From an uncultured Bacteroidaceae bacterium (GTDB lineage Bacteria; Bacteroidota; Bacteroidia; Bacteroidales; GCA-2748055): DNA of 64,000 nucleotides. Positions 6,534 to 22,183 of this stretch are shown one piece after another. The first letter of the stretch is position 1. Each line of letters begins with the position of its first letter. Below the pieces are notes generated by a model, which was not told the DNA's origin, ran no database searches, and was given only the letters and a program-made list of their open reading frames with translations. The stretch spans positions 6,477 through 70,476 of the forward strand of contig CAZGTU010000012.1 of assembly GCA_964528675.1 (NCBI GenBank), read 5' to 3'. A program made the translations under genes and the position numbers.

Positions 6534-8048
6534 TTAAAATCCGGTGGGTGTACCCACTCTTGTCATTGCACAACGGAAACCTATATCGTCTCGGGCTTCT
6601 GTTTCAAGAAGGAATCTTCTTGTACCGGGGCTAAGATAGTAAGCCCTGTCTTTCCAGGATCCACCTTTATAAACTCTTACCCTGTCATTGATAAGAGAAG
6701 ATTTCTCATACTCATTGTTAACATACATGTTGTCGGTACCTTTTTGATAAGCTTCTGAGGCAGTGTCTGTTTCAGCATAAAACATTGAAGAATTAAGGTC
6801 GCCGTCACGATAATTTCTGTAATCCGATTTCCTGTAATTGAATCTGTTTTCGGCATCAGCTTCAGTAATAGGTTCTCTGATTACCCTGCCCAGACTGTCT
6901 ACCTGGGGCATATTATCGTTGGCAGGATCTTGATAAATCTTGTCAAACTGGTTTCCACGGTATGGATTGAATTCGCTTACATCCTGGAATGAGAGTGGTC
7001 TGTAAACATCAGAAACCCATTCATTAACATTTCCAGCCATGCAGTAGAGTCCATAATCATTTGGCCAGAAAGATTTTACAGGAGTGGTAATGGAACCTGC
7101 ATCGTTAAGTGAACCGGCAACTCCCATCATATCGCCTTTACCTCTCTGGAAATTGGCTCTCATTTCACCCATATGCCTGGGAGCATCATTTCTTACATTA
7201 TGTCCGTTCCATGGATATATTTTTCTTTCCCATACCAGTTCATCCACTGTGTTTCCGCGAAGCGCATATGCAGCAAATTCCCATTCTGCTTCGGTGGGAA
7301 GACGGTATTTTGGAAGAAGCAGTCCATCCTCAAGTTTGAGATCCCTGGTATCTTTATTCGGGTTAAGACTTTCAATGGCATTTCTGTAAGTCGGCTTATA
7401 AATACCCAGCAGGAATGCTTCAGTGTTGAAATGGTTTTCTCCTTTCTGGTCGGTAGATAATTCGATAATGCCCTCATTTACAAGAAGCATTTCATTCACC
7501 CTGTCGGTTCTCCAGATACAGTAATCGTTTGCCTGTAACCAGTTAACGCCAACTACGGGGTATTGGTTAAAGGTGGGATGACGGAAATAATATTCAACAT
7601 AAGGTTCGTTGTAAGCCATAGGGTTTCTCCATACCAGAGTATCCGGAAGAGCCCGGTTTACAACATTCCTTTGCGGATCTACATCCTCGCTGAATATTCT
7701 CTCCAGCCAGTAGAGGTATTCACGATAATCAACGTTCCTCACCTCTGTTTCATCCATATAAAATGAAGAGACAGTAACTCTCCTGGGAACTGCATTCCAT
7801 TCATACATCACGTCATCCTGAACACGGCCCATGGTAAAGGTACCTCCTTCGATGAGTACAAGACCGGGTCCGGTTTCTTGTTCAACTGCATTCTTTACTT
7901 CAAATCCACCACTTGCGGGGTCGTTATACTCCCATCCTGTTGTGGATGAAGCTTTTCCTGTTGATGTTAAGTCCTGATTGCCACCACATGAATAAAGCAT
8001 TGCTAATGCAATAATGATGACCGGGAAACTTTTCAGTTTGATTTTCAT
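6534..8048 (-). CDS. gldJ: gliding motility lipoprotein GldJ (SUMF1/FGE-fold)
   Basis: Lipoprotein signal MKIKLKSFPVIIIALAMLYSC and a sulfatase-modifying-factor-like domain. Synteny with murF, porU and porV matches what I recall for Flavobacterium johnsoniae. Confidence 0.82.
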   Translation of the reverse strand: MKIKLKSFPVIIIALAMLYSCGGNQDLTSTGKASSTTGWEYNDPASGGFEVKNAVEQETGPGLVLIEGGTFTMGRVQDDVMYEWNAVPRRVTVSSFYMDETEVRNVDYREYLYWLERIFSEDVDPQRNVVNRALPDTLVWRNPMAYNEPYVEYYFRHPTFNQYPVVGVNWLQANDYCIWRTDRVNEMLLVNEGIIELSTDQKGENHFNTEAFLLGIYKPTYRNAIESLNPNKDTRDLKLEDGLLLPKYRLPTEAEWEFAAYALRGNTVDELVWERKIYPWNGHNVRNDAPRHMGEMRANFQRGKGDMMGVAGSLNDAGSITTPVKSFWPNDYGLYCMAGNVNEWVSDVYRPLSFQDVSEFNPYRGNQFDKIYQDPANDNMPQVDSLGRVIREPITEADAENRFNYRKSDYRNYRDGDLNSSMFYAETDTASEAYQKGTDNMYVNNEYEKSSLINDRVRVYKGGSWKDRAYYLSPGTRRFLLETEARDDIGFRCAMTRVGTPTGF

Positions 8049-8108
8049 AGTGTTACAGCTTTGCTTTTTTATGAAATATCTGTTTAAAATATTTAATTTC
8101 AAAAATAA

Positions 8109-9095
8109 CTAAATTTTAGGACATTTTATTGCCCTGTGTTTCTTTTTCTTTTTACCATCTATTGTTAATATCAGTGACAACTCGTGAGCCCCTAAATTCG
8201 GGATATGCACTGATGGTAACGATAGTTGCTGGTCATAACTATAACGAAATCTGTAATTTTTTGTTACGTAGCCTGCAGAAAAAATTAATGATCCGAATTT
8301 AATACCTAAATTTTGCCTTAACCAGATTCCTAAAATGAACTGATCCTGAATGACCCCTTCCATACCATATATAATCTGGCTGAAACTTTTTTGCTGCTGA
8401 TAGATTATGTTGGGAGAGATCTGAACTACTTCTTTTCCTAACCTTCTTTCATAAACAGGTATGATACCTCCTGCAAATAGGACAACTTTTCTCGGAAGTC
8501 GGGCATTTGGATCAGAACTGACGGAAGGATTAGGCCTCAAAAGATGAGAAACGGAAGCACCTCCGTAAAAATTTTCATAAAAACCTACCAAACCTGCACT
8601 AAAATCAGGATAAGCGGAATTCTGACTGTATAAAATATCACCTGTGGGATTTGTAAATTCTCCTGTTCGTGGATTGATCATATCACCAAGCACCACATCT
8701 GAAGTATTCAGGCTCCTCTGAGCATAACTTGCATCAATACCTGCACTGACACTGAATCTCCTTGTAATTTTAATATGATAGGAGTATAAAAGTCCCAGTT
8801 CGAATTGCTTTATTGTCCCGTTGCCCTGAATATCATTCATTAATCTTATTCCAAACCCTCCGTGCATATGATCGATATATTGATCATAGGATGCCGAATA
8901 TGTTACATAATTACCACTGATAGACGGCCATTGATTCCTGTAATTTATGAAAGCTCTTCGAATATTTTTTTCAATTCCTGTAAACCCTGGATTCAGGTAT
9001 AAGCGATTGGCATAAAACTGTGAAAAACTCGGGTCCTGTCCCGAAAGATTTACCCGGAAAAGAATAATGATAAGAATGATTCCTGTTAGCTTTAT
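8109..9095 (-). CDS. PorP/SprF family T9SS membrane protein; the full-length frame has no canonical start codon
   Basis: The track ORF (8109-8867) is open a further 76 codons upstream. That extension encodes IKLTGIILIIILFRVNLSGQDPSFSQFYANRLYLNPGFTGI, a signal peptide plus the conserved PorP/SprF N-terminus. There is no in-frame ATG, GTG or TTG between the upstream stop and 8867. ATA at 9095-9093 sits where the Met is expected. Confidence 0.75.
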   Translation of the reverse strand: MKLTGIILIIILFRVNLSGQDPSFSQFYANRLYLNPGFTGIEKNIRRAFINYRNQWPSISGNYVTYSASYDQYIDHMHGGFGIRLMNDIQGNGTIKQFELGLLYSYHIKITRRFSVSAGIDASYAQRSLNTSDVVLGDMINPRTGEFTNPTGDILYSQNSAYPDFSAGLVGFYENFYGGASVSHLLRPNPSVSSDPNARLPRKVVLFAGGIIPVYERRLGKEVVQISPNIIYQQQKSFSQIIYGMEGVIQDQFILGIWLRQNLGIKFGSLIFSAGYVTKNYRFRYSYDQQLSLPSVHIPNLGAHELSLILTIDGKKKKKHRAIKCPKI

Positions 9096-9237
9096 GGGAA
9101 CATTCTCTATTGAGGGCTTGTATTTAAAGGTGATTCCGATGGCAATAAAATATTGTTAAACTACGTTTTATGAAACGAAAAATCTGGATTTTTGTTATAT
9201 CTTCATCTTTATTACTAAAAATTAATGCTTTAAGCTA

Positions 9238-12200
9238 ATGAGATTTGTTCCATTCTTCCTCCTGTTCCTCTTTCAGGGGGTAATAGGCCAGACAAGTTTT
9301 TTAACAAGAACTATTGAATGGCAGGATCCCAAGCCTCAACTTCAACCCGGGAATATCAAAGATATAACTTCATTTTCCAACTCTTATTGCAGAGATATTA
9401 AAGGTTTATTTCCCTATTATTATGAAAATATTCCTGTTGATGAAAACCGTGTTCCTTTTTCTCTCAGCTTTGTGAGAACAGAAACCCAGACGATTAGCAA
9501 TGAAATTCTCCCTCAATATTTTAAGAAGAAATTGACGAATGAATTTTCTCTTGAATTTTATACCTCAAGAGAAAATGGTAAGAAAATTCTTCAATACACC
9601 ATCTTTCCATTTCGAATTAATCCTGTAACAGGAAAACCGGAACGTCTTATCTCATTTGCCCTTCGTATTGATCAACAGGAAATCACTCCTGAATTGCATA
9701 AGAAAAAGCTTAAATCGGGTACAATAAAAAATTCACTTCTTGCAACAGGCGACTGGTATAAAATCAGAACCGAAGAGGAGGGAATACACAGGATCTCTTA
9801 TAATGATCTGATCAAAATTGGAATTGCCAATCCGGAAAATGCTAAAATATTTGGTTACGGAGGAAAAAGATTACCAGAAGATTCTCGTAAGGGTAATCAG
9901 AATGAATTAATTGAAGTGCCTGTATTTATTGAAAAAGGAGGGGATGGCGTGTTTAACAGCGGGGATTACCTGCTCTTTTATGCATTGGGGACAGTAGAAT
10001 GGAATTACAATGAAAATGAAGATTATTTCCATCATGAAAAAAATCCTTACTCCGATTATGGATATTATTTTATTACATCCGGCGATTCACCGGCCGTATC
10101 ACCACAGAACATGGAATTGGCTGAAGCTCCTGCCGATTATATCAGTCGAAGGTATGATGCTCTTGCTTATCATGAGCTTGATGAGGTAAACCTTATTAAA
10201 TCAGGAAAGGAATGGTACGGTGAGATTTTTGATGTGACCACCGAAAGGTCATTCTCCTTTCATATACCTTCGCTTGACCGGGATTCTCCCGTGAAAATGA
10301 AAACCAACCTGCTGGGGCGCTCCAAAAGCGATAGCCATTATGTTATATCTGTGAACAATAACACTATTGATACAGCCAGGATTAATGATACCAATCTTGG
10401 TGATTATACTGCTGTTTATGCTTATACAAGTTCAGAAATTTATTCTTTTTCATCTTTGTCAGATAATCTCGAAGTTGAGCTTCAGTATATCAAACCGGAT
10501 CCTACTGCACAGGGATGGCTCGACTATCTTTCGGTGAATGCCAGGGCAGAACTGAAACTTCAAGGAGATCAGCTAATTTTTAGGGATAGCGAGTGCCTCA
10601 ACTCATCTGTAACGGAATATATTGTTTCCGAAGCCACTGCTTCTGCTTTAGTATGGGAAGTATCGGATTATCCATATGTCAAAAATGTACCCGGTGATCT
10701 TAATGGCAATACATTTTCTTTTAAAGTTGAAGGCGGTAATCTTCATGAGTTTATCGCATTTGACCCGGCTGCTGATTTCCCCGGTGTAACTTTTGAAGGA
10801 GAAGGGCTTGGAAAAGTTGAAAATCAAAATCTTAGCGGAAGCGGTTATCCTGACCTGGTTATTGTAAGTCATCAAGATTTTATTCCTTATGCAGAAGAAC
10901 TTGCGCAATATCGCTCCGATCATAATGAACTGGAGGTTCTGCTTACCACTCCCGAAAAAATCTATAATGAGTTTTCTTCCGGAAGGCCTGATGTTACTGC
11001 TATACGGAATTTTATGCAATATCTGTACCTGGGTGCCGGGGAGAATAAAGATCTGCAACCTCAATATTTATTGTTGTATGGAGATGGATCCTATATTTTT
11101 AAGTCCAATAATCCGAACGATGGAAATTTTGTCCCTGCTTATCAGTCGGATAACAGTCTTTCCCCGATCTCATCTTTCGTTACAGACGATTTTTACGGAC
11201 TTCTGGATGAAGGTGAAAATATTTCCAGTGGCCTTCTGGACATAGGTATAGGAAGATTGCCGGTATCCAATGAAGAGGAGGCTGAAATCATGCTTAATAA
11301 AATAATAAATTATGAGTCACCCGAAAGACAGGGCGAGTGGAGAAACACTATTGTATTTATCGGAGATGATGAAGATAACAATATTCATTTCAACCAGGCT
11401 GATGAACTCGCAAGATATGTGGAGGGGAATTATCCCGCCTTTAATGTAAATAAGATATATCTGGATGCCTACCAGCAGGTTTCAACTCCTGTAGGTCAGC
11501 GTTATCCGGAAGTCAATAAGGCAATTAACCGGCAGGTAAACAAAGGTGCACTGATTGTTAATTATACAGGACACGGGGGAACTAAGGGACTTGCTCATGA
11601 AAGGATTCTGGAAATGAACGATATACAATCATGGAATAATCAAGGAAAACTGCCGCTCTTCATGACAGCGACCTGCGAATTCAGCCGGTTCGATGAACCG
11701 GAACTCGTTTCAGCAGGTGAAAAGGTTATCTTGAGTCCTGAAGGAGGGGGAATTGCTCTGTTAACGACCACAAGATTGGTATACGCCGGTCCTAATCACG
11801 TGCTTAATGAAAAATTTTACGAGATCGTCTTTGAAAAAAATGAGGAAGGAAAAAATTATTGTCTTGGCGATATCATGAAATATAGTAAAAACAATGCCGG
11901 TGTAGGGATCAATAAAAGAAACTTCACCTTGCTGGGCGATCCTGCTATGCGATTAACATATCCATTTCACAATATAGTTGCTGATTCAATTAACCAGGCA
12001 ATGATACAGGAGGAGAGTGACACAATCAGGGCGCTCTCGGAAGTGAGAATTACCGGTCATGTTCAGAATGCCGGGGGAGATCTGTTGGACTCATTTAATG
12101 GAATCATTTATCCTACAGTATATGATAAACCTTCAGAACAAACTACCCTGGCAAATGACGGGGGATCAAAGAAGAGCTTTAAGGTCAGAAATAATATATT

Positions 12201-15160: not shown

Positions 15161-15238
15161 ATAGAGTCTGTGAATAAAATTGAGTGTCTGACCCGATAGC
15201 TATCCGGGCAGATATCGGACATTATGGACAGACTCTAT
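15161..15238. repeat. short copy of the 14435-14643 element family, in inverted orientation
   Basis: Own termini ATAGAGTCTGT at 15161-15171 and ACAGACTCTAT at 15228-15238. Positions 15211-15233 are the exact reverse complement of 14443-14465 (23 nt). It also shares the CCGATAGCTATC hairpin module and the CAGACACT..TTTATT..ACAGAC end module. Confidence 0.6.
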
Positions 15239-15265
15239 ATAATTATTTTTAGCGTTGTTCAAGAC

Positions 15266-17206
15266 TTAATAAAAATATATCTCAGGAAACTCCAGCAACC
15301 TTCTTTCTATTGTTTTCTCCAGGAAAGAAATGTCATCCTTTAAATTTTCTTCCTGTTCATAAAAGCTGCTTAGCTTTACAAGTGAGAGGATGGATTTATA
15401 ATATTTAAGCGTTTGAATATCCCTTGGATTGTCATCTTTTAATTCCGTTTTAAGAATATTTTTTTCCATCTCAATAAAATATTCTTCAAAAGCTTTTTTT
15501 CCTAATTCTTCAGTCTCTTCTGTGTTATAAAGGTTATCGATAAGAAAAAGATAATAATAGTTAATTCCTGTTTTTTGGGGAGGATATTTTTCGATAAACT
15601 CCAGTATCATTTTCTGTTTTCTTTTGTTATCTTCATGAAATTCTGCAGTGTAAATCCGGATAAAGCTGGCTTCCAGCAAAAGATTGAAAATAATGGTTCG
15701 TGAAAAAAAATCGGATCCCGGGGCATAAAGGCTTGTGTTTTTTACCATATCATTAATGGCAAGAGTGTCAAAGTAATGATCTTCAAAAAAAATGGTGTTT
15801 GGGCCTTTTCGCTCGAGGCTGTAGTATAATCCTTTATCCACAAGGTGTGCCTTATCAAACATAGACTTGAAACGTGGCTGCATTCCTTTACTGAAGTATA
15901 GGTGCCGTTTCCCGAGCTGGCTGTGTACTATATTCTGCAGTAAATACTCTGAGGTAGAAATCACGTTACCCTTTTTTCCACTGACCATTTTGAGGGTATC
16001 AACAAGCCCTTCATCTGTAACATAATCAATAATATAATTTCCATAAGGAATAGTGATAACAGGATTGTTCTCTTTAAGCTGACGGGCAAGCGAGATTTGA
16101 ACATTCCTAAACAAAAGATCACGAGGTGTTTCATCTTCTATAAGCAAGGTATGTTCAGCAAGCGTAATAATTAATTTTTTTTCATCCAAAATACTTTCCA
16201 GACTTTGTGCTGTATTCCTTTTTCTTGTTAGAAGAAGATAATAAAGGGGATCACGTAAAAGGGAAAGGTTTACTATATTAATGTCTTTTCGAAAACCCTT
16301 TGACTCCTGGAGCCAGATAAGGGGATAGGTATCGTTATCCCCATTGGTAAATAATATGCTGTTTTTCTCAAGAGGAGAAAGTATCTCATATGCATATCGT
16401 TCCCAAAATTCATGGTATAACTGCTTATCTCCGACAGATTCAAGGAATTTGTCGGCTTCTTTTTCGAAACCAAATATTTGCAGCTCATAAAAGCTGTCCA
16501 TTACTTCATTGGCATATTTAATATCCATTAAACCAACAAGGGTTTTGTAATCCGGGGATCTTTCATACAGAATGCGAAGATAATAGGATGATTTTTCAGC
16601 ATATTCCAGATATAGTTTAGCATCCCTTTTTTCAGCTCTTACACCCCGGGCTTTTGTCGGATCGGAATATTGAGAATGGGACCAGAAAATATCCGAAGCC
16701 TTTTGAGCATATGCCCTTCCGAGACCATATAATTCATTGTCGGATAAAGTTGCCGTTTTCTTTTGTTCGTAATATTTTATGACATCATCCATCCATCCCG
16801 AATAACCATAAAAGGGTTGAATGGCAAAATCATAGAGATCCTGGTTTGAAATTAGTTCCGTAATGAGAATGTCTTTGTCGTTTTTATGCGGATCTATGTG
16901 GGGTGGGAATTTATTATCATAAGACCAGATTGTGATCCGATTTGGATTTTTGTATGAAAGATATTGGGGTGTAACATGCCAGCCTGATGGATCCCGGATG
17001 AAGTTAAAACGATAGAAATCCTCGTTTCTGTAATTATTCAGTTCAAAATTCTGGGCAAAAACCTTCGCTATTTCTTCCAGTTTAGGATATCTGTATGGAT
17101 CGCGAAAGTCCTGTCCGATTAGCCTGGTAGAGAAATGGAGCAGAATGCTGATCCAGATCAGATGAGAAAAGAGTGTTTTTATGTCTTTTTTGTAAAAACT
17201 TATCAT
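15266..17206 (-). CDS. hypothetical signal-anchored protein with a DUF2723-like motif
   Basis: 646 aa with one N-terminal hydrophobic segment. The motif FTNGDNDTYPLIWLQESKGFRKDINIVNLSLL resembles the conserved NGDNDTFP...NLSLL block of DUF2723 (GT117-like) proteins, but the multi-pass membrane domain is absent. Confidence 0.45.
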   Translation of the reverse strand: MISFYKKDIKTLFSHLIWISILLHFSTRLIGQDFRDPYRYPKLEEIAKVFAQNFELNNYRNEDFYRFNFIRDPSGWHVTPQYLSYKNPNRITIWSYDNKFPPHIDPHKNDKDILITELISNQDLYDFAIQPFYGYSGWMDDVIKYYEQKKTATLSDNELYGLGRAYAQKASDIFWSHSQYSDPTKARGVRAEKRDAKLYLEYAEKSSYYLRILYERSPDYKTLVGLMDIKYANEVMDSFYELQIFGFEKEADKFLESVGDKQLYHEFWERYAYEILSPLEKNSILFTNGDNDTYPLIWLQESKGFRKDINIVNLSLLRDPLYYLLLTRKRNTAQSLESILDEKKLIITLAEHTLLIEDETPRDLLFRNVQISLARQLKENNPVITIPYGNYIIDYVTDEGLVDTLKMVSGKKGNVISTSEYLLQNIVHSQLGKRHLYFSKGMQPRFKSMFDKAHLVDKGLYYSLERKGPNTIFFEDHYFDTLAINDMVKNTSLYAPGSDFFSRTIIFNLLLEASFIRIYTAEFHEDNKRKQKMILEFIEKYPPQKTGINYYYLFLIDNLYNTEETEELGKKAFEEYFIEMEKNILKTELKDDNPRDIQTLKYYKSILSLVKLSSFYEQEENLKDDISFLEKTIERRLLEFPEIYFY

Positions 17207-17381
17207 GTTATACTAAAATCCTGATAAAATTCGTTGAAATCAAACTGATTAATTAACTTAACACTTTCAATAAATATTATCTATAGATCAAAAAAGTTTA
17301 TCGAAGGTAATATACAAAGTAATTTTTATTCAGGTTTAACAATCAGTCTAAATACGAATATTTTTAAAGATTGAAGCTGAA

Positions 17382-18791
17382 ATGAAGAAAATACCCGTCT
17401 TTTTGTTTGTCCTTTTAGTATATTCTTATATTTCATTAAATGCTCAACAATACGAAATTAAAATAAATATTCCGGATTATTCCGGAAAAAGAGCTTACCT
17501 GGCATTGCTTCAGGGTGATGAGAGTGTTCTTGTGGACTCAACTGTGGTGAGCAACGGAAAGATTGAATTTTTATTTGATAAAGAAAAAGCTCTGGGATTA
17601 TACCGGCTTTTTCTTTCCGATCCTGCCCTTTCTCAAATGCAACGGAGAGAACCTGTTCATTTCGATTTTATTTTCAATCGGGAAAACATTGAATTAATGA
17701 GCAGTTACTCATCACTTCTTAAGGATATGGTAGTATTCAGATCCAGGGAAAACAAAAAATATTTTGACTTTTTAAGACTTAAATCTGATTACCGTCGCCA
17801 TTTAAGTCTCTTACTCCCTTTGACTGAAGTCTATGATAGCACAGACAGTTTCTTTTCCTCTCTCAGGAGGGAATTACTGAATGTACAACTGGATTATAAT
17901 GATTCTCTCGTGAAATTGGCAAATACAGATCCCCATATGCTCGTTTCTTCATTAATTGCTTTAAATAGAGAACCTGTTTTTGATCCCGGGAAACACGAGA
18001 ATCTGACAGGTTTTATGAGAGAAAATTATCTTGCCACTGTGAGTTTTACAGATGAGAGGCTTCTTAATACAAATGCAATCACTCAAAAGGTCATTTCATA
18101 TTTAAGTTTTTATCGTGGACAAGAAATGAACAGGCAGGAACAGGAAAAAGCTTTTATTCAGGCTGTTGATAAGATCATGGAAGAGGTGAGTTATAACCAG
18201 GAAATCTATGATTTTGTTCTTGATTATCTCATCGATGGATTTGAACAATTTCAGATGGAAGAAGTGCTGGTCCATATTGCGGATAATCATCTAACCGGGG
18301 AATGTAAAACAGAAAGTGAAGAAATTGCAAAAGAAAGACTGGAAGCCTACCAGAAAATGGCTCCGGGAAAAAAGGTCCCTGATATTAATCTTCTCGATCC
18401 TTTCGATACCCCTCATCGTTTATCTTCCCTTGAAAATGAAATGATCCTTTTAATTTTCTGGTCATCAGAATGTCCCCACTGCACCAATCTTTTACCGCGT
18501 CTTAATAAATGGTATAATAAAGAGAAGGAAAACTATGATCTGGGTATTTATACCGTATCGATTGATGATAGCAGAATTGATTGGGAGGAATTCGTCCTGA
18601 TGAATGAACTGGATTGGATCAATGTTTATGATCCGGAAGGATGGGAAAGCACCACCTCTCAAAGGTATAATATTTATGCAACTCCTACCATGTTACTATT
18701 GAACAAGGATCTGAAGATTATAGCTAAACCTATAACCTTCAGAGATGTGAAGCAGGCTATTGAAGATGAGACTCGAATCGTGAATAATTAA
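17382..18791 (+). CDS. TlpA/redoxin-family thiol-disulfide oxidoreductase with a long N-terminal domain
   Basis: Signal peptide and a C-terminal thioredoxin fold with a CxxC motif (WSSECPHCTNLLP) and YNIYATPT. Confidence 0.75.
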   Translation: MKKIPVFLFVLLVYSYISLNAQQYEIKINIPDYSGKRAYLALLQGDESVLVDSTVVSNGKIEFLFDKEKALGLYRLFLSDPALSQMQRREPVHFDFIFNRENIELMSSYSSLLKDMVVFRSRENKKYFDFLRLKSDYRRHLSLLLPLTEVYDSTDSFFSSLRRELLNVQLDYNDSLVKLANTDPHMLVSSLIALNREPVFDPGKHENLTGFMRENYLATVSFTDERLLNTNAITQKVISYLSFYRGQEMNRQEQEKAFIQAVDKIMEEVSYNQEIYDFVLDYLIDGFEQFQMEEVLVHIADNHLTGECKTESEEIAKERLEAYQKMAPGKKVPDINLLDPFDTPHRLSSLENEMILLIFWSSECPHCTNLLPRLNKWYNKEKENYDLGIYTVSIDDSRIDWEEFVLMNELDWINVYDPEGWESTTSQRYNIYATPTMLLLNKDLKIIAKPITFRDVKQAIEDETRIVNN

Positions 18792-18840
18792 AAATTACAT
18801 TTACTTAGTAGCATCTTACAGGGAATTTATGCATTAGATT

Positions 18841-19044
18841 TCAAGTGTTATTTTCTTTTTCGCCCAGAACCTGAAGCATTAAAGGATAAGCCTGATGCAT
18901 GGTGTTTTTAACAACATTGAATACCAGTCTTCGGTAATGATGTAAACGGTTTTCAATCACTCCGGGTATATTTTGGTTTACACCCGTGCGACAATATTCT
19001 CCAAGCTGATTTTGAGCTTTAGCCGTGGGTTTTTGAAGATTCAT
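18841..19044 (-). CDS. DUF2063 (MbnC/BufC/HvfC-like) N-terminal fragment, 67 aa
   Basis: RLHHYRRLVFNVVKNTMHQAYPLMLQVLGE matches the R..YRNN....AL...YP....LG block at the N-terminus of DUF2063 proteins. The ORF stops immediately afterwards, and only 49 nt remain before the convergent neighbouring gene. It overlaps the MNIO gene by 26 nt. Confidence 0.55.
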   Translation of the reverse strand: MNLQKPTAKAQNQLGEYCRTGVNQNIPGVIENRLHHYRRLVFNVVKNTMHQAYPLMLQVLGEKENNT

Positions 19045-19864
19045 GATATACCTCCCAATGACTTTTTGTTATTTGTCTAAGCTTTGATAATTCGGCATTC
19101 AGGGCATCCATCTCATTGAAATTGTAATCTCTCTCCAGTAAAACCGGAACCGGTTTCATTTTGCTCACGGTCCATTCAAATAACTCATAAACCGGATCGA
19201 TAATTGGTTGTCCATGGGTGTCAATAATGAGATCAGGTTCTACCTGCTCATGGCCGGCCATATGAATATAGGCAACCTTATCCAGGGGTAATTGAGATAT
19301 GAAATGGTAAGGATCATACTTGTGATTAAATCCATTGACATAAACATTATTTACATCAAGGAGTAGTTGACAATCGGCTTCTTTTACGATTTCTTTTATA
19401 AAATCCAATTCACTCATCTCTGCAGCAACAGGTGTGTAATACGATACGATTTCAATTGCAATATTCCTTTCAAGTATTTCCTGTGCCTGCCTTATTCTGC
19501 CAGCCACATGATAGACCGCATCTTCTCTGAAAGGTATTGGAAGAAGATCATACATGTGCGCGTTCTGACTTTTTGTATAACTCAGATGTTCAGAAAAGAT
19601 CTGTACATCGTATTTAATGAGGAATTTTTTCAATTCATCCAGAAAATCCATGTCTAGCTCATCCGGACTGCCCAGAGACATGGAAAGTCCGTGACAGGTG
19701 ACCGGGTATTTTTCCGATGCTCTCTCAAGGATCTTTTTCCAGTAGCCTCCGATCCCCATCCAATTTTCCGGGGCGAATTCGATAAAATCCGGATTTAGTT
19801 TGTCCGAATCTAACAAGGTATCTGCGATATCTCTTCTAAAACCTATTCCTGTTGATGTTTTCAT
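19019..19864 (-). CDS. DUF692 / MNIO (multinuclear non-heme iron oxidative) RiPP maturase, MbnB/BufB/HvfB-like
   Basis: MKTSTGIGFRRDIADTLL...PDFIEFAPENWMGIGG...CHGLSMSLGS...FSEHLSY...HMAGH...LERDYNF is the typical DUF692 TIM-barrel pattern. ATG 19864 is preferred over the GTG at 19888 used by the track. Confidence 0.88.
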   Translation of the reverse strand: MKTSTGIGFRRDIADTLLDSDKLNPDFIEFAPENWMGIGGYWKKILERASEKYPVTCHGLSMSLGSPDELDMDFLDELKKFLIKYDVQIFSEHLSYTKSQNAHMYDLLPIPFREDAVYHVAGRIRQAQEILERNIAIEIVSYYTPVAAEMSELDFIKEIVKEADCQLLLDVNNVYVNGFNHKYDPYHFISQLPLDKVAYIHMAGHEQVEPDLIIDTHGQPIIDPVYELFEWTVSKMKPVPVLLERDYNFNEMDALNAELSKLRQITKSHWEVYHESSKTHG

Positions 19865-19880
19865 GATTTTTTGTTTTAAA

Positions 19881-19961
19881 GAATTCACGTTGGGTTCCCA
19901 GTCTTAACATACACCCAATGACATTCAAACTTCTCATCGACCGGTATCCGAACGTGAATTC
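19881..19961 (-). promoter_or_regulatory. intercistronic stem-loop between the precursor gene and the MNIO gene
   Basis: Perfect 11-bp inverted repeat: GAATTCACGTT at 19881-19891 and AACGTGAATTC at 19951-19961. The 59-nt loop contains a smaller TTGGGT/ACCCAA stem. Confidence 0.45.
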
Positions 19962-19982
19962 TAAGATTTCATACTGCCTTTT

Positions 19983-20393
19983 TTAACCGCATTTTCCTTC
20001 GCCGCATTTTGCTTCGGGTGTTTTTCCTTCAGCTTCTTTGGATTTCTTTTTTCCTTCTTTTTTAGCGGATTCGGCCTTTTTAGCATCTGACTTTTTGTCT
20101 TCAGCTTTTTTTTCCTCAGTTTTTTTCGCTTCTTTTTTCTTTTTTTCATTTTCTTCTTCTGACTTTCCTTCTCCACACTTTCCTTCTCCGAATTTATAGT
20201 TATTCTCATTATGGAGAATATCCGGCGCATTGAGATTCATAATTTCACTTCTGACTTCAGCTCCTGAGCCCATGGCAGAATAATCAGGTATTTCTGCCTT
20301 TGTCTCATTAGCTGCAAAGCTTGTGAGAGAAGAAGTAAGAATAGCTCCTGTTAATAATGAAGCGGACATAAGGATGTTTTTCTCTTTTTTCAT
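19983..20393 (-). CDS. secreted Cys-motif RiPP precursor, HvfA/bufferin-like metallophore candidate
   Basis: 136 aa with a Sec signal peptide (MKKEKNILMSASLLTGAILTSSLTSFA). There are only three Cys (73, 130, 135), all in (E)GKCG contexts: GEGKCGEGK and a C-terminal AKCGEGKCG. A K/E-rich spacer of about 50 aa separates them. The gene lies directly upstream of the DUF692 gene. Confidence 0.72.
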   Translation of the reverse strand: MKKEKNILMSASLLTGAILTSSLTSFAANETKAEIPDYSAMGSGAEVRSEIMNLNAPDILHNENNYKFGEGKCGEGKSEEENEKKKKEAKKTEEKKAEDKKSDAKKAESAKKEGKKKSKEAEGKTPEAKCGEGKCG

Positions 20394-20468
20394 AACAAAT
20401 TAATTTTAAATTTTGTATTGGATTCATTTTATTAGTCGATAGCAAAATGATTTCCTTACAGAATTTAA

Positions 20469-20556
20469 AAAAAATCTTCCTGTTCCGCCCAGGCGGATAC
20501 AGGGTAAAAAACAGGAAGATTTTTTAATGTGTCAAAGTAGATCTAATTAGTGTCTG
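20469..20556. repeat. hairpin module related to the 14435 family; functions as a terminator on the minus strand
   Basis: 15-bp perfect stem AAAAAATCTTCCTGT (20469-20483) / ACAGGAAGATTTTTT (20511-20525) encloses TCCGCC-CA-GGCGGA. On the minus strand the stem is followed by a T-run. CTAATTAGTGTCTG at 20543-20556 is identical to 14434-14447. Confidence 0.55.
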
Positions 20557-20595: not shown

Positions 20596-20889
20596 TTATT
20601 TGAGTTCTTTGAGGACACGGGTTTTAATTCTTTTCTTCTCACTGGAGTTTAGATGATGATGTTTTCCTGCTTCAAGATGTTTTTGAAAATATTCGTCCAG
20701 TATTCTGATATCTCTGGCATAGCGTAAACAATATTTACAGCTAAGCAAATGAATACGCAAATTCATCCTTTCTTTAAAATTCAGTTTATTGTCTCTTGAT
20801 TTAGAAGCAAGGTAGGTGGCTTCATCGCATGCAATCATCATCCTGGCAAGCTTTGCCATCATTTTATTTCTGAGAGAATTATTATTCAC
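20596..20889 (-). CDS. putative zinc-binding (ZAS-type) anti-sigma factor, cytoplasmic
   Basis: 97 aa with the HxxxCxxC motif (IHLLSCKYCL), no transmembrane segment, and a His run (GKHHHL). Located immediately downstream of the ECF sigma gene. Confidence 0.55.
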   Translation of the reverse strand: MNNNSLRNKMMAKLARMMIACDEATYLASKSRDNKLNFKERMNLRIHLLSCKYCLRYARDIRILDEYFQKHLEAGKHHHLNSSEKKRIKTRVLKELK

Positions 20890-20935: not shown

Positions 20936-21586
20936 TTATTTCTCCATCCATTTTTTTTCCAGGCATTGCCGAATTTTCAAACGGGCTCTATGCAGTAATA
21001 CCCACAAATTTGACGATGTAATTTCTAATTCCTTACAGATTTCCTCGCTTTCACATTCCTCTATGATTTTCAAAGTAAAGGCAGCTGCCCATTTCTGTGG
21101 AAGAAAAGAAATGCATAATTCCAGTATTTTCTGAAACTCATCTCTTTCGATCATTTCTTCAATATTAAAGCCGGATTTTCCCGGAGCTGCATCTTTTTTC
21201 CAATGTCCCTTAAAAGGTCCTTCCTGCTGAAATGGTAAATTTTCACCTCCCACTTCCCAGTTCTTATCAATGATCATTTTTTCTCTCGAAGTACCGGCTT
21301 TACGATAATGATCAATTATTTTATTTTTCAGGATTGAAGTCAGCCATGTTTTTTCCTTGCTCTCACCTTTAAATTTTTCTTTTGACTTGAGGGCGGACAG
21401 AAAAGTTTCCTGAACCAGATCTTCGGAAAGTTCTCTTTGAAATACTCTGCTCATAGCGTAACTGAAGAGATAATCCCCATATTTCTCTGTCCAGAGGGAA
21501 GGATCGGATATATTACCTGGTTTTTTCACAGTCATTTCAGAAGGCAATATAGATTTTTGAAATGAAAATAACAATTTTGTATACAT
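20936..21586 (-). CDS. ECF-type sigma-70 family RNA polymerase sigma factor
   Basis: Region 2 (DLVQETFLSAL...) and region 4 (ICKELEITSSNLWVLLHRARLKIRQCL) are recognisable. The real start is probably ATG 21535 (MTVKKPG...). Confidence 0.88.
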   Translation of the reverse strand: MYTKLLFSFQKSILPSEMTVKKPGNISDPSLWTEKYGDYLFSYAMSRVFQRELSEDLVQETFLSALKSKEKFKGESKEKTWLTSILKNKIIDHYRKAGTSREKMIIDKNWEVGGENLPFQQEGPFKGHWKKDAAPGKSGFNIEEMIERDEFQKILELCISFLPQKWAAAFTLKIIEECESEEICKELEITSSNLWVLLHRARLKIRQCLEKKWMEK

Positions 21587-21748: not shown

Positions 21749-22183
21749 ATGAATAAAATATTTTTTATTTTGATTTCAGTATTATCCACTTTCTCAGCTA
21801 GTGCTCAGGGGCATTCTGATTTAAGGGTTGAGATTGAAGGGCTTAGAAATCAAGAAGGTAAAATCAGCATTACTCTTTTCAACAGTCCCGAAGGATTCCC
21901 TGAGGATATAGACAAGGCGTATAAATGGAAAACGCAGGATTTAAATGAAGAGAAGCCGGTATTCACTTTTGAGGGTCTTCCAGCAGGTGAGTACGCTTAT
22001 GCAATTCTGCATGATGAAGATGGTGATGGGGAAATGAAAAAGAATCTGCTTGGAATTCCCAGGGAAGGATTTGGTTTTTCAAATAATTACAAACCCAGAA
22101 TAAAAAACCCATCGTTTCAGGACGCTTCATTTTCTCTAAGCGGTGGATCCGAAACACACCAGATTGAAATCATATATTTTTAA
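21749..22183 (+). CDS. DUF2141 domain-containing secreted protein
   Basis: 144 aa with a signal peptide. The pattern L.VEIEGLRN.EGKI.I.LFNS...FP...GEYAYA.LHDEDGDGEM..N.LGIPREGFGFSNN is typical of DUF2141. Confidence 0.78.
   Translation: MNKIFFILISVLSTFSASAQGHSDLRVEIEGLRNQEGKISITLFNSPEGFPEDIDKAYKWKTQDLNEEKPVFTFEGLPAGEYAYAILHDEDGDGEMKKNLLGIPREGFGFSNNYKPRIKNPSFQDASFSLSGGSETHQIEIIYF

Follow-up and report, generated by a model that had tools for sequence, protein, structure and literature searches.

Organization of the locus

The window analysed here, a stretch of 64,000 nucleotides from the genome of an uncultured Bacteroidaceae bacterium, contains a cluster of minus-strand genes enclosed between two conserved flanking genes. 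On one side lies an intact gene for a TlpA/ResA-like thiol-disulfide oxidoreductase of 469 aa (17382-18791, plus strand), which is convergent with the cluster and is conserved as its flank in the related genomes G001, G002, G008 and G024. The conserved flank on the other side is a DUF2141 gene (21749-22183, plus strand). The cluster itself consists of genes for an ECF sigma factor (20936-21586), a zf-HC2 anti-sigma factor (20596-20889), an hvfA-like precursor (19983-20393) and the MNIO (DUF692) maturase HvfB (19019-19888), followed by an ORF of 67 codons (18841-19044) whose TGA occupies positions 18841-18843. All five are read from the minus strand. The stop codons of the ORF and of the TlpA-like gene are separated by an unstranded spacer of 49 nt (18792-18840), the distance already given in a preliminary description of the sequence.

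Gene hvfB is intact. Its product reaches 377 bits with the HvfB equivalog NF003818 (cut-off 360), agrees with relatives in 117 of the 118 columns that are conserved to at least 95% among 84 of them, and has all invariant His, Asp and Glu residues. Translation probably starts at ATG 19864 (MKTSTGIGF) and not at the listed GTG 19888, which is likely to be too far upstream because the matching stretch of L022, the closest relative found (88% HvfB identity), is interrupted by an in-frame TAA.

The gene for the precursor and those for the regulators are open. The precursor (136 aa) is composed of a signal peptide, a K/E-rich spacer and a part with three cysteines, all in (E)GKCG motifs. Its match to the HvfA HMM is weak; by position and sequence, including the three KCG motifs, it is orthologous to the precursors of relatives. 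The number of cysteines is the lowest in the set (three versus four to eight in relatives). The first motif pair reads GKCGEGKS, with serine where the second cysteine is expected, and the middle repeat block present in the precursors of G002, G008 and G024 is missing. Such Cys-to-Ser variants are also seen in precursors of clusters with full-length or still-open hvfC.

Homology of the 67-codon ORF

The ORF is positioned immediately downstream of hvfB, and its ATG sits 26 nt inside the 3' end of that gene. Relatives have the same overlap, and the layout is identical in G002. Since the overlap with hvfB is kept, the ORF is probably still transcribed and translated.

According to the preliminary description, the ORF reproduces the conserved N-terminal block of DUF2063 proteins and then stops, and this is borne out by four kinds of comparison. 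The Pfam DUF2063 profile is matched with 27.3 bits (cut-off 27.2), residues 10-63 of the ORF covering profile positions 2-52 of 83. On the NCBIfam HvfC model (NF050145) the match has an E-value of 1.1e-6 and extends over positions 2-56 of 237, with 28.8 bits versus a cut-off of 142. Using tblastn, the ORF was matched to HvfC N-termini of neighbouring genomes with E-values from 1e-27 to 1e-11 (13 genes, each directly 3' of an MNIO gene). An HvfC profile built for the clade gives 93 bits (E 5.6e-26), a value to be read with the ORF itself being one row of that profile. The conserved blocks YCRTG, IPG, HHYRRLV, NTM and QAYPL are all kept. Judged from these alignments, the homology to DUF2063/HvfC is real and limited to the first quarter of the family: the ORF corresponds to residues 1-63 of HvfC/PME-type-1 partners of 250 aa. 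A member of HvfC would be expected to have about 250-260 aa and to score above 142 bits on the equivalog, whereas the ORF has 67 aa and 28.8 bits.

Weak similarity to HvfC continues in frame for about five codons beyond the TGA, to about position 18823, as seen with both tblastn and the clade profile. Codons 69-74 after the stop (N-L-M-H-K-F; 18823-18840, minus strand) align weakly with profile positions 68-72 and may be a further remnant of hvfC. The only match to the clade profile in the own genome accordingly spans positions 1-72 and reads through the TGA. Because similarity goes on past it, the stop seems to lie inside a wrecked gene and not to be a designed end. Recoding of the TGA was also considered and is ruled out, since the approximately five codons of similarity are followed by a TAA.

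Length of HvfC in related loci

The preliminary description placed members of the DUF2063 family at around 250 aa with a C-terminal domain. This holds for the relatives, whose HvfC proteins have 246-261 aa; that of G002 combines DUF2063 with NGO1945_C. Published data likewise give DUF2063-type partners a narrow length distribution of 250-260 aa (PMC12452194).

We wondered if a partner as short as the 67-codon ORF occurs at syntenic loci of other genomes. Among 60 related genomes searched for MNIO, 13 contain it; a homologue of the ORF lies directly 3' of the MNIO gene in all 13, and in each of the 12 loci readable to the hvfC stop HvfC has 250-253 aa. A survey of JGI metagenome contigs added 80 further loci, 59 of them showing the gene end, and in 58 of these HvfC has 249-261 aa. 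When one genome per species was taken (Bacteroidales, Marinilabiliaceae, Labilibacter, Chitinophaga and the like), lengths were 246-256 aa in 73 of 73. A full-length partner is thus encoded at all but one of the relatives' loci that show the end of the gene. In L022, hvfC is open for at least 127 codons, up to the contig end. A search for short homologues, limited to proteins of 37-117 aa among 5.8 billion clusters, returned only the ORF itself.

The single exception among the metagenome loci, L035, is a 1-kb contig with 70% HvfB identity (region about 825-1055). It has one in-frame stop at about hvfC codon 64, at a position where relatives have Trp, and homology goes on after it. The stop is either a sequencing error or the mark of an independent hvfC pseudogene.

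Most relatives also have hvfX beside this gene: it follows hvfC in 39 distinct loci of the genome and metagenome sets, and in 51 of 80 species genomes.

Synteny and extent of the deletion

The site was compared with its counterparts in genomes of the same family. In G002, which belongs to the same genus, the TlpA-like gene (8951-10378, plus strand) is followed by hvfX, hvfC, hvfB and then hvfA. The hvfX gene of the DoxX type (10498-10932, minus strand) scores 134 bits on the HvfX equivalog (cut-off 80), hvfC (10961-11713, minus strand) encodes the two-domain protein of 250 aa, and HvfA has 150 aa with six cysteines. G008 and G024, representing other genera of the family, display the same order of TlpA-like gene, hvfX, hvfC, hvfB and hvfA, with the sigma/anti-sigma pair in addition.

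Between the point where TlpA homology ends and about codon 64 of hvfC, G002 has about 1137 nt and the window 79 nt; about 1.05-1.1 kb is therefore absent from the latter. What is missing comprises hvfC from about codon 73 on (to about 250), the intergenic region and the whole of hvfX, a second gene whose loss the preliminary description had not seen. The 49-nt spacer stands in place of about 1.1 kb of relatives. The breakpoint lies between about 18792 and 18853; with the nearest relatives diverging by about 25% in nucleotide sequence, pairwise and local DNA alignments to G002 and L022 narrowed this range no further.

Of the three readings offered in the preliminary description, only decay after a deletion is supported, and strongly so, by synteny with relatives, G002, G008 and G024 included. 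The ancestor had sigma, anti-sigma, hvfA, hvfB, hvfC and hvfX at this site, enclosed by the TlpA-like gene and DUF2141. In the lineage of the window, a single deletion of about 1.05-1.1 kb, if not several smaller ones, then eliminated hvfX entirely, the intergenic region and the part of hvfC beyond about codon 73, so that the stub came to lie 49 nt from the convergent TlpA-like stop. The deletion is shown, as is the lack of a substitute (see below), whereas the loss of function and its recent date are inferred. We consider it very probable that the ORF is the 5' stub of hvfC left by such a deletion together with hvfX, and that the cluster is disabled by ordinary gene decay. The 67-aa "DUF2063 protein" is a pseudogene fragment, and its annotation should be corrected to this effect.

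No repeat, MITE or IS footprint was detected at the junction, and the own genome contains no second sequence with significant similarity to the spacer. An alteration of the TlpA-like tail by the deletion is ruled out: the slightly longer tail is matched in length and style by G001. Scanning for terminator-like hairpins gave none in the 49-nt spacer. Loss of a terminator through the deletion is not claimed, as the same scan with the same criteria finds none in the G002 intergenic region either. A hairpin of this kind with a 14-bp stem is located within the 3' end of the TlpA-like coding sequence (18710-18743, minus strand) and, after the deletion, is the nearest one 3' of the hvf genes.

Verification of the junction

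The window derives from a fragmented MAG, and this raises the question of an assembly artefact or a minority allele: the true population genome might have intact hvfC and hvfX, the junction being collapsed or chimeric. In agreement with this, a contig of a close relative (protein P0002, 92% identical over 66 residues) continues into hvfC sequence past codon 67. On the other hand, exactly the same junction is found, with 100% identity, in Logan contigs assembled from two different runs (SRR15425353 and SRR15425352), one of which spans 15212-20530. Moreover, no orphan contig with the missing 3' part of hvfC or with hvfX occurs in the MAG, and both flanks are collinear with relatives. We regard an artefact or a minority allele as very unlikely.

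Search for a partner encoded elsewhere

The preliminary description also considered that recognition may be provided in trans, which would call for a partner or RRE protein from another locus of the genome. The own genome is 94% complete and split into 337 contigs, which leaves some room for such a gene, and some other bacteria have their bufferin precursor and MNIO genes at separate loci (PMC12452194). However, the searches yield no candidate. Profile searches of the own genome revealed a single MNIO and a single DUF2063 match, with no second DUF2063/HvfC, NGO1945_C, HvfX or Anthrone_oxy partner. Consistently, tblastn with HvfC of 14 relatives, C-terminal domain included, gave nothing convincing beyond the stub, to which the clade profile is confined as well. 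Neither the ORF nor the 49-nt spacer encodes the C-terminal RRE-type domain (NGO1945_C), and it is found nowhere else in the own genome. A partner acting in trans is further opposed by biochemistry of known systems: HvfB and HvfC purified apart and then mixed gave no complex and no activity, co-expression being required (PMC11252979; bioRxiv 10.64898/2026.07.17.739211). Taken together, recognition in trans is extremely improbable.

Structure of the stub and role of HvfC

To delimit structurally what is left of the partner, an AF2 model of HvfC of a relative (L066, mean pLDDT 92.7) was used. The model consists of two domains. The N-terminal one has seven helices (5-20, 35-52, 54-59, 62-75, 83-96, 99-102 and 108-123), and an alpha/beta domain is located at 143-248. 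Foldseek matches it to NGO1945 (3DEE), to TglI in TglHI (8HI7) and to MbnC in MbnABC (7DZ9); full-length orthologues of relatives are thus predicted to fold like these three proteins. When mapped on the model, residues 1-63 of the stub are helices 1-3 of the seven-helix N-domain, with no RRE. Since homology stops after residue 63, the stub falls short of a complete N-terminal helical domain (about 125 aa, seven helices).

In published work, modification of HvfA depends on the joint presence of HvfB and HvfC, and HvfA binds HvfC, not HvfB (PMC11252979). Omission of HvfC abolishes the product (PMC11252979; bioRxiv 10.64898/2026.07.17.739211), and HvfB reaches its active Fe(II)/Fe(III) state only with HvfC (bioRxiv 10.64898/2026.07.17.739211). 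Because co-expression with HvfC is a prerequisite for HvfB to bind its substrate and to attain this iron state, installation of thiooxazole on HvfA has most likely been lost in the host of the window.

The preliminary description allowed that the MNIO enzyme may act with a minimal partner. The 67-aa peptide would then bind HvfB and support modification of HvfA, e.g. through adjustment of the iron cofactor, with HvfB recognising the EGKCG repeats directly. Several observations speak for this. Every conserved N-terminal motif and the translational coupling to hvfB are kept, hvfB and hvfA are intact, and the stub shows no relaxed evolution (see below). HvfA truncations without the entire N-terminal region are still modified by HvfBC (PMC11252979), and short PME-type-2 partners without full RRE exist, the shortest one cited having 115 aa and a DUF2063-related domain (PMC12452194). 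Nevertheless, the short form is unique to the own genome: none of about 140 relatives has an equally short conserved ORF, and the search for proteins of 37-117 aa found the ORF alone. Its three of seven N-domain helices are less than in any described PME, the in-frame TGA lies inside residual hvfC sequence as in a wreck, and the same gap also cost hvfX. This reading thus fails in our comparison, and we assign it only a very low probability. A putative variant, in which the three N-terminal helices of the stub bind HvfB and suffice for the mixed-valent diiron state while the repeat cysteines of HvfA are modified without RRE, we hold to be just as doubtful. If true, this variant would uncouple the cofactor-tuning function of PME proteins from peptide recognition.

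Selection on the stub and timing of the loss

The stub resembles its counterparts in relatives as closely as expected from the identity of hvfB (z from -1.5 to +0.8). Pairwise comparison with L022 gives it a dN/dS of 0.125; the value between two relatives that are open through the same 63 codons is 0.126. Relaxed selection on the stub was therefore not detectable in these comparisons; dS is saturated versus G002. Since no additional decay is seen in hvfB, hvfA or the stub, loss by deletion looks recent. The lack of further decay, however, fits continued selection on what is left equally well, and it is for this reason that a small probability is kept for the minimal partner.

Comparison with known systems

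The ORF resembles HvfC of Haemophilus influenzae (NTHI1444) and NGO1945 (3DEE), both PME-type-1, in that its first approximately 63 residues are homologous and its gene follows hvfB directly and overlaps it. In contrast to these proteins, it has 67 aa instead of 250-260 and is devoid of helices 4-7 of the DUF2063 domain and of the RRE-type NGO1945_C. PME-type-2 short partners (115-215 aa; PMC12452194) are also below the canonical two-domain size, and some of them are without full RRE. Their DUF2063-like helical domain is nevertheless complete and they fall into conserved sequence clusters, whereas the stub retains under half of this domain and has no conserved short relatives.

At the level of the cluster, the window shares an HvfB-class MNIO and a signal-peptide precursor with (E)GKCG motifs with hvfABCX/captophorin (oxazolin, fontiphorin) clusters. 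Products of such clusters are now named captophorins, and their modification has been reassigned to 5-thiooxazole (PMC13097082). The ECF sigma/anti-sigma pair is as in some bufferin clusters. The window differs in its truncated partner, in the absence of the DoxX-type hvfX and in a precursor with only three cysteines; its host belongs to Bacteroidota, while the characterised hvfABCX/captophorin examples are from Pseudomonadota. The locus ought to be excluded when functional copper-peptide clusters of captophorin/oxazolin type are counted. It is a natural double deletion of hvfC and hvfX with hvfA, hvfB and the regulators intact, and as such it could be used to test partner-independent activity of HvfB.

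States of the site within the genus

G001, the third genome of the genus (84% complete; L108, contig C10), is collinear in both flanks at 73-80% nucleotide identity. Here the TlpA-like gene (7454-8866) and DUF2141 (9062-9532) are only about 200 nt apart, with neither hvf genes nor the sigma/anti-sigma pair between them, i.e. the site is empty. G002 has all four hvf genes (hvfXCBA) but no sigma/anti-sigma pair. The site thus exists in one genus in three states, with all four hvf genes in G002, partial in the window and empty in G001. In the family, MNIO is kept in 11 of 36 genomes. The cluster is therefore dispensable and undergoes repeated loss. Three species-level genomes of one uncultured Bacteroidales genus, with the site full, half deleted and empty, are of modest wider value.

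The relative represented by P0002 adds a further observation. This protein is encoded by a 575-bp ENA contig and falls into the same 90% cluster as the stub. Beyond residue 67 it extends in the +1 frame of hvfC (E 3e-6 versus the shifted frame of L022). Because the protein continues in this frame, its source must have retained hvfC DNA in this place, apparently with a frameshift close to the codon where homology ends in the window. As far as can be deduced from the protein, the frameshift might stem from slippage by 7 nt between two ATGATT repeats.
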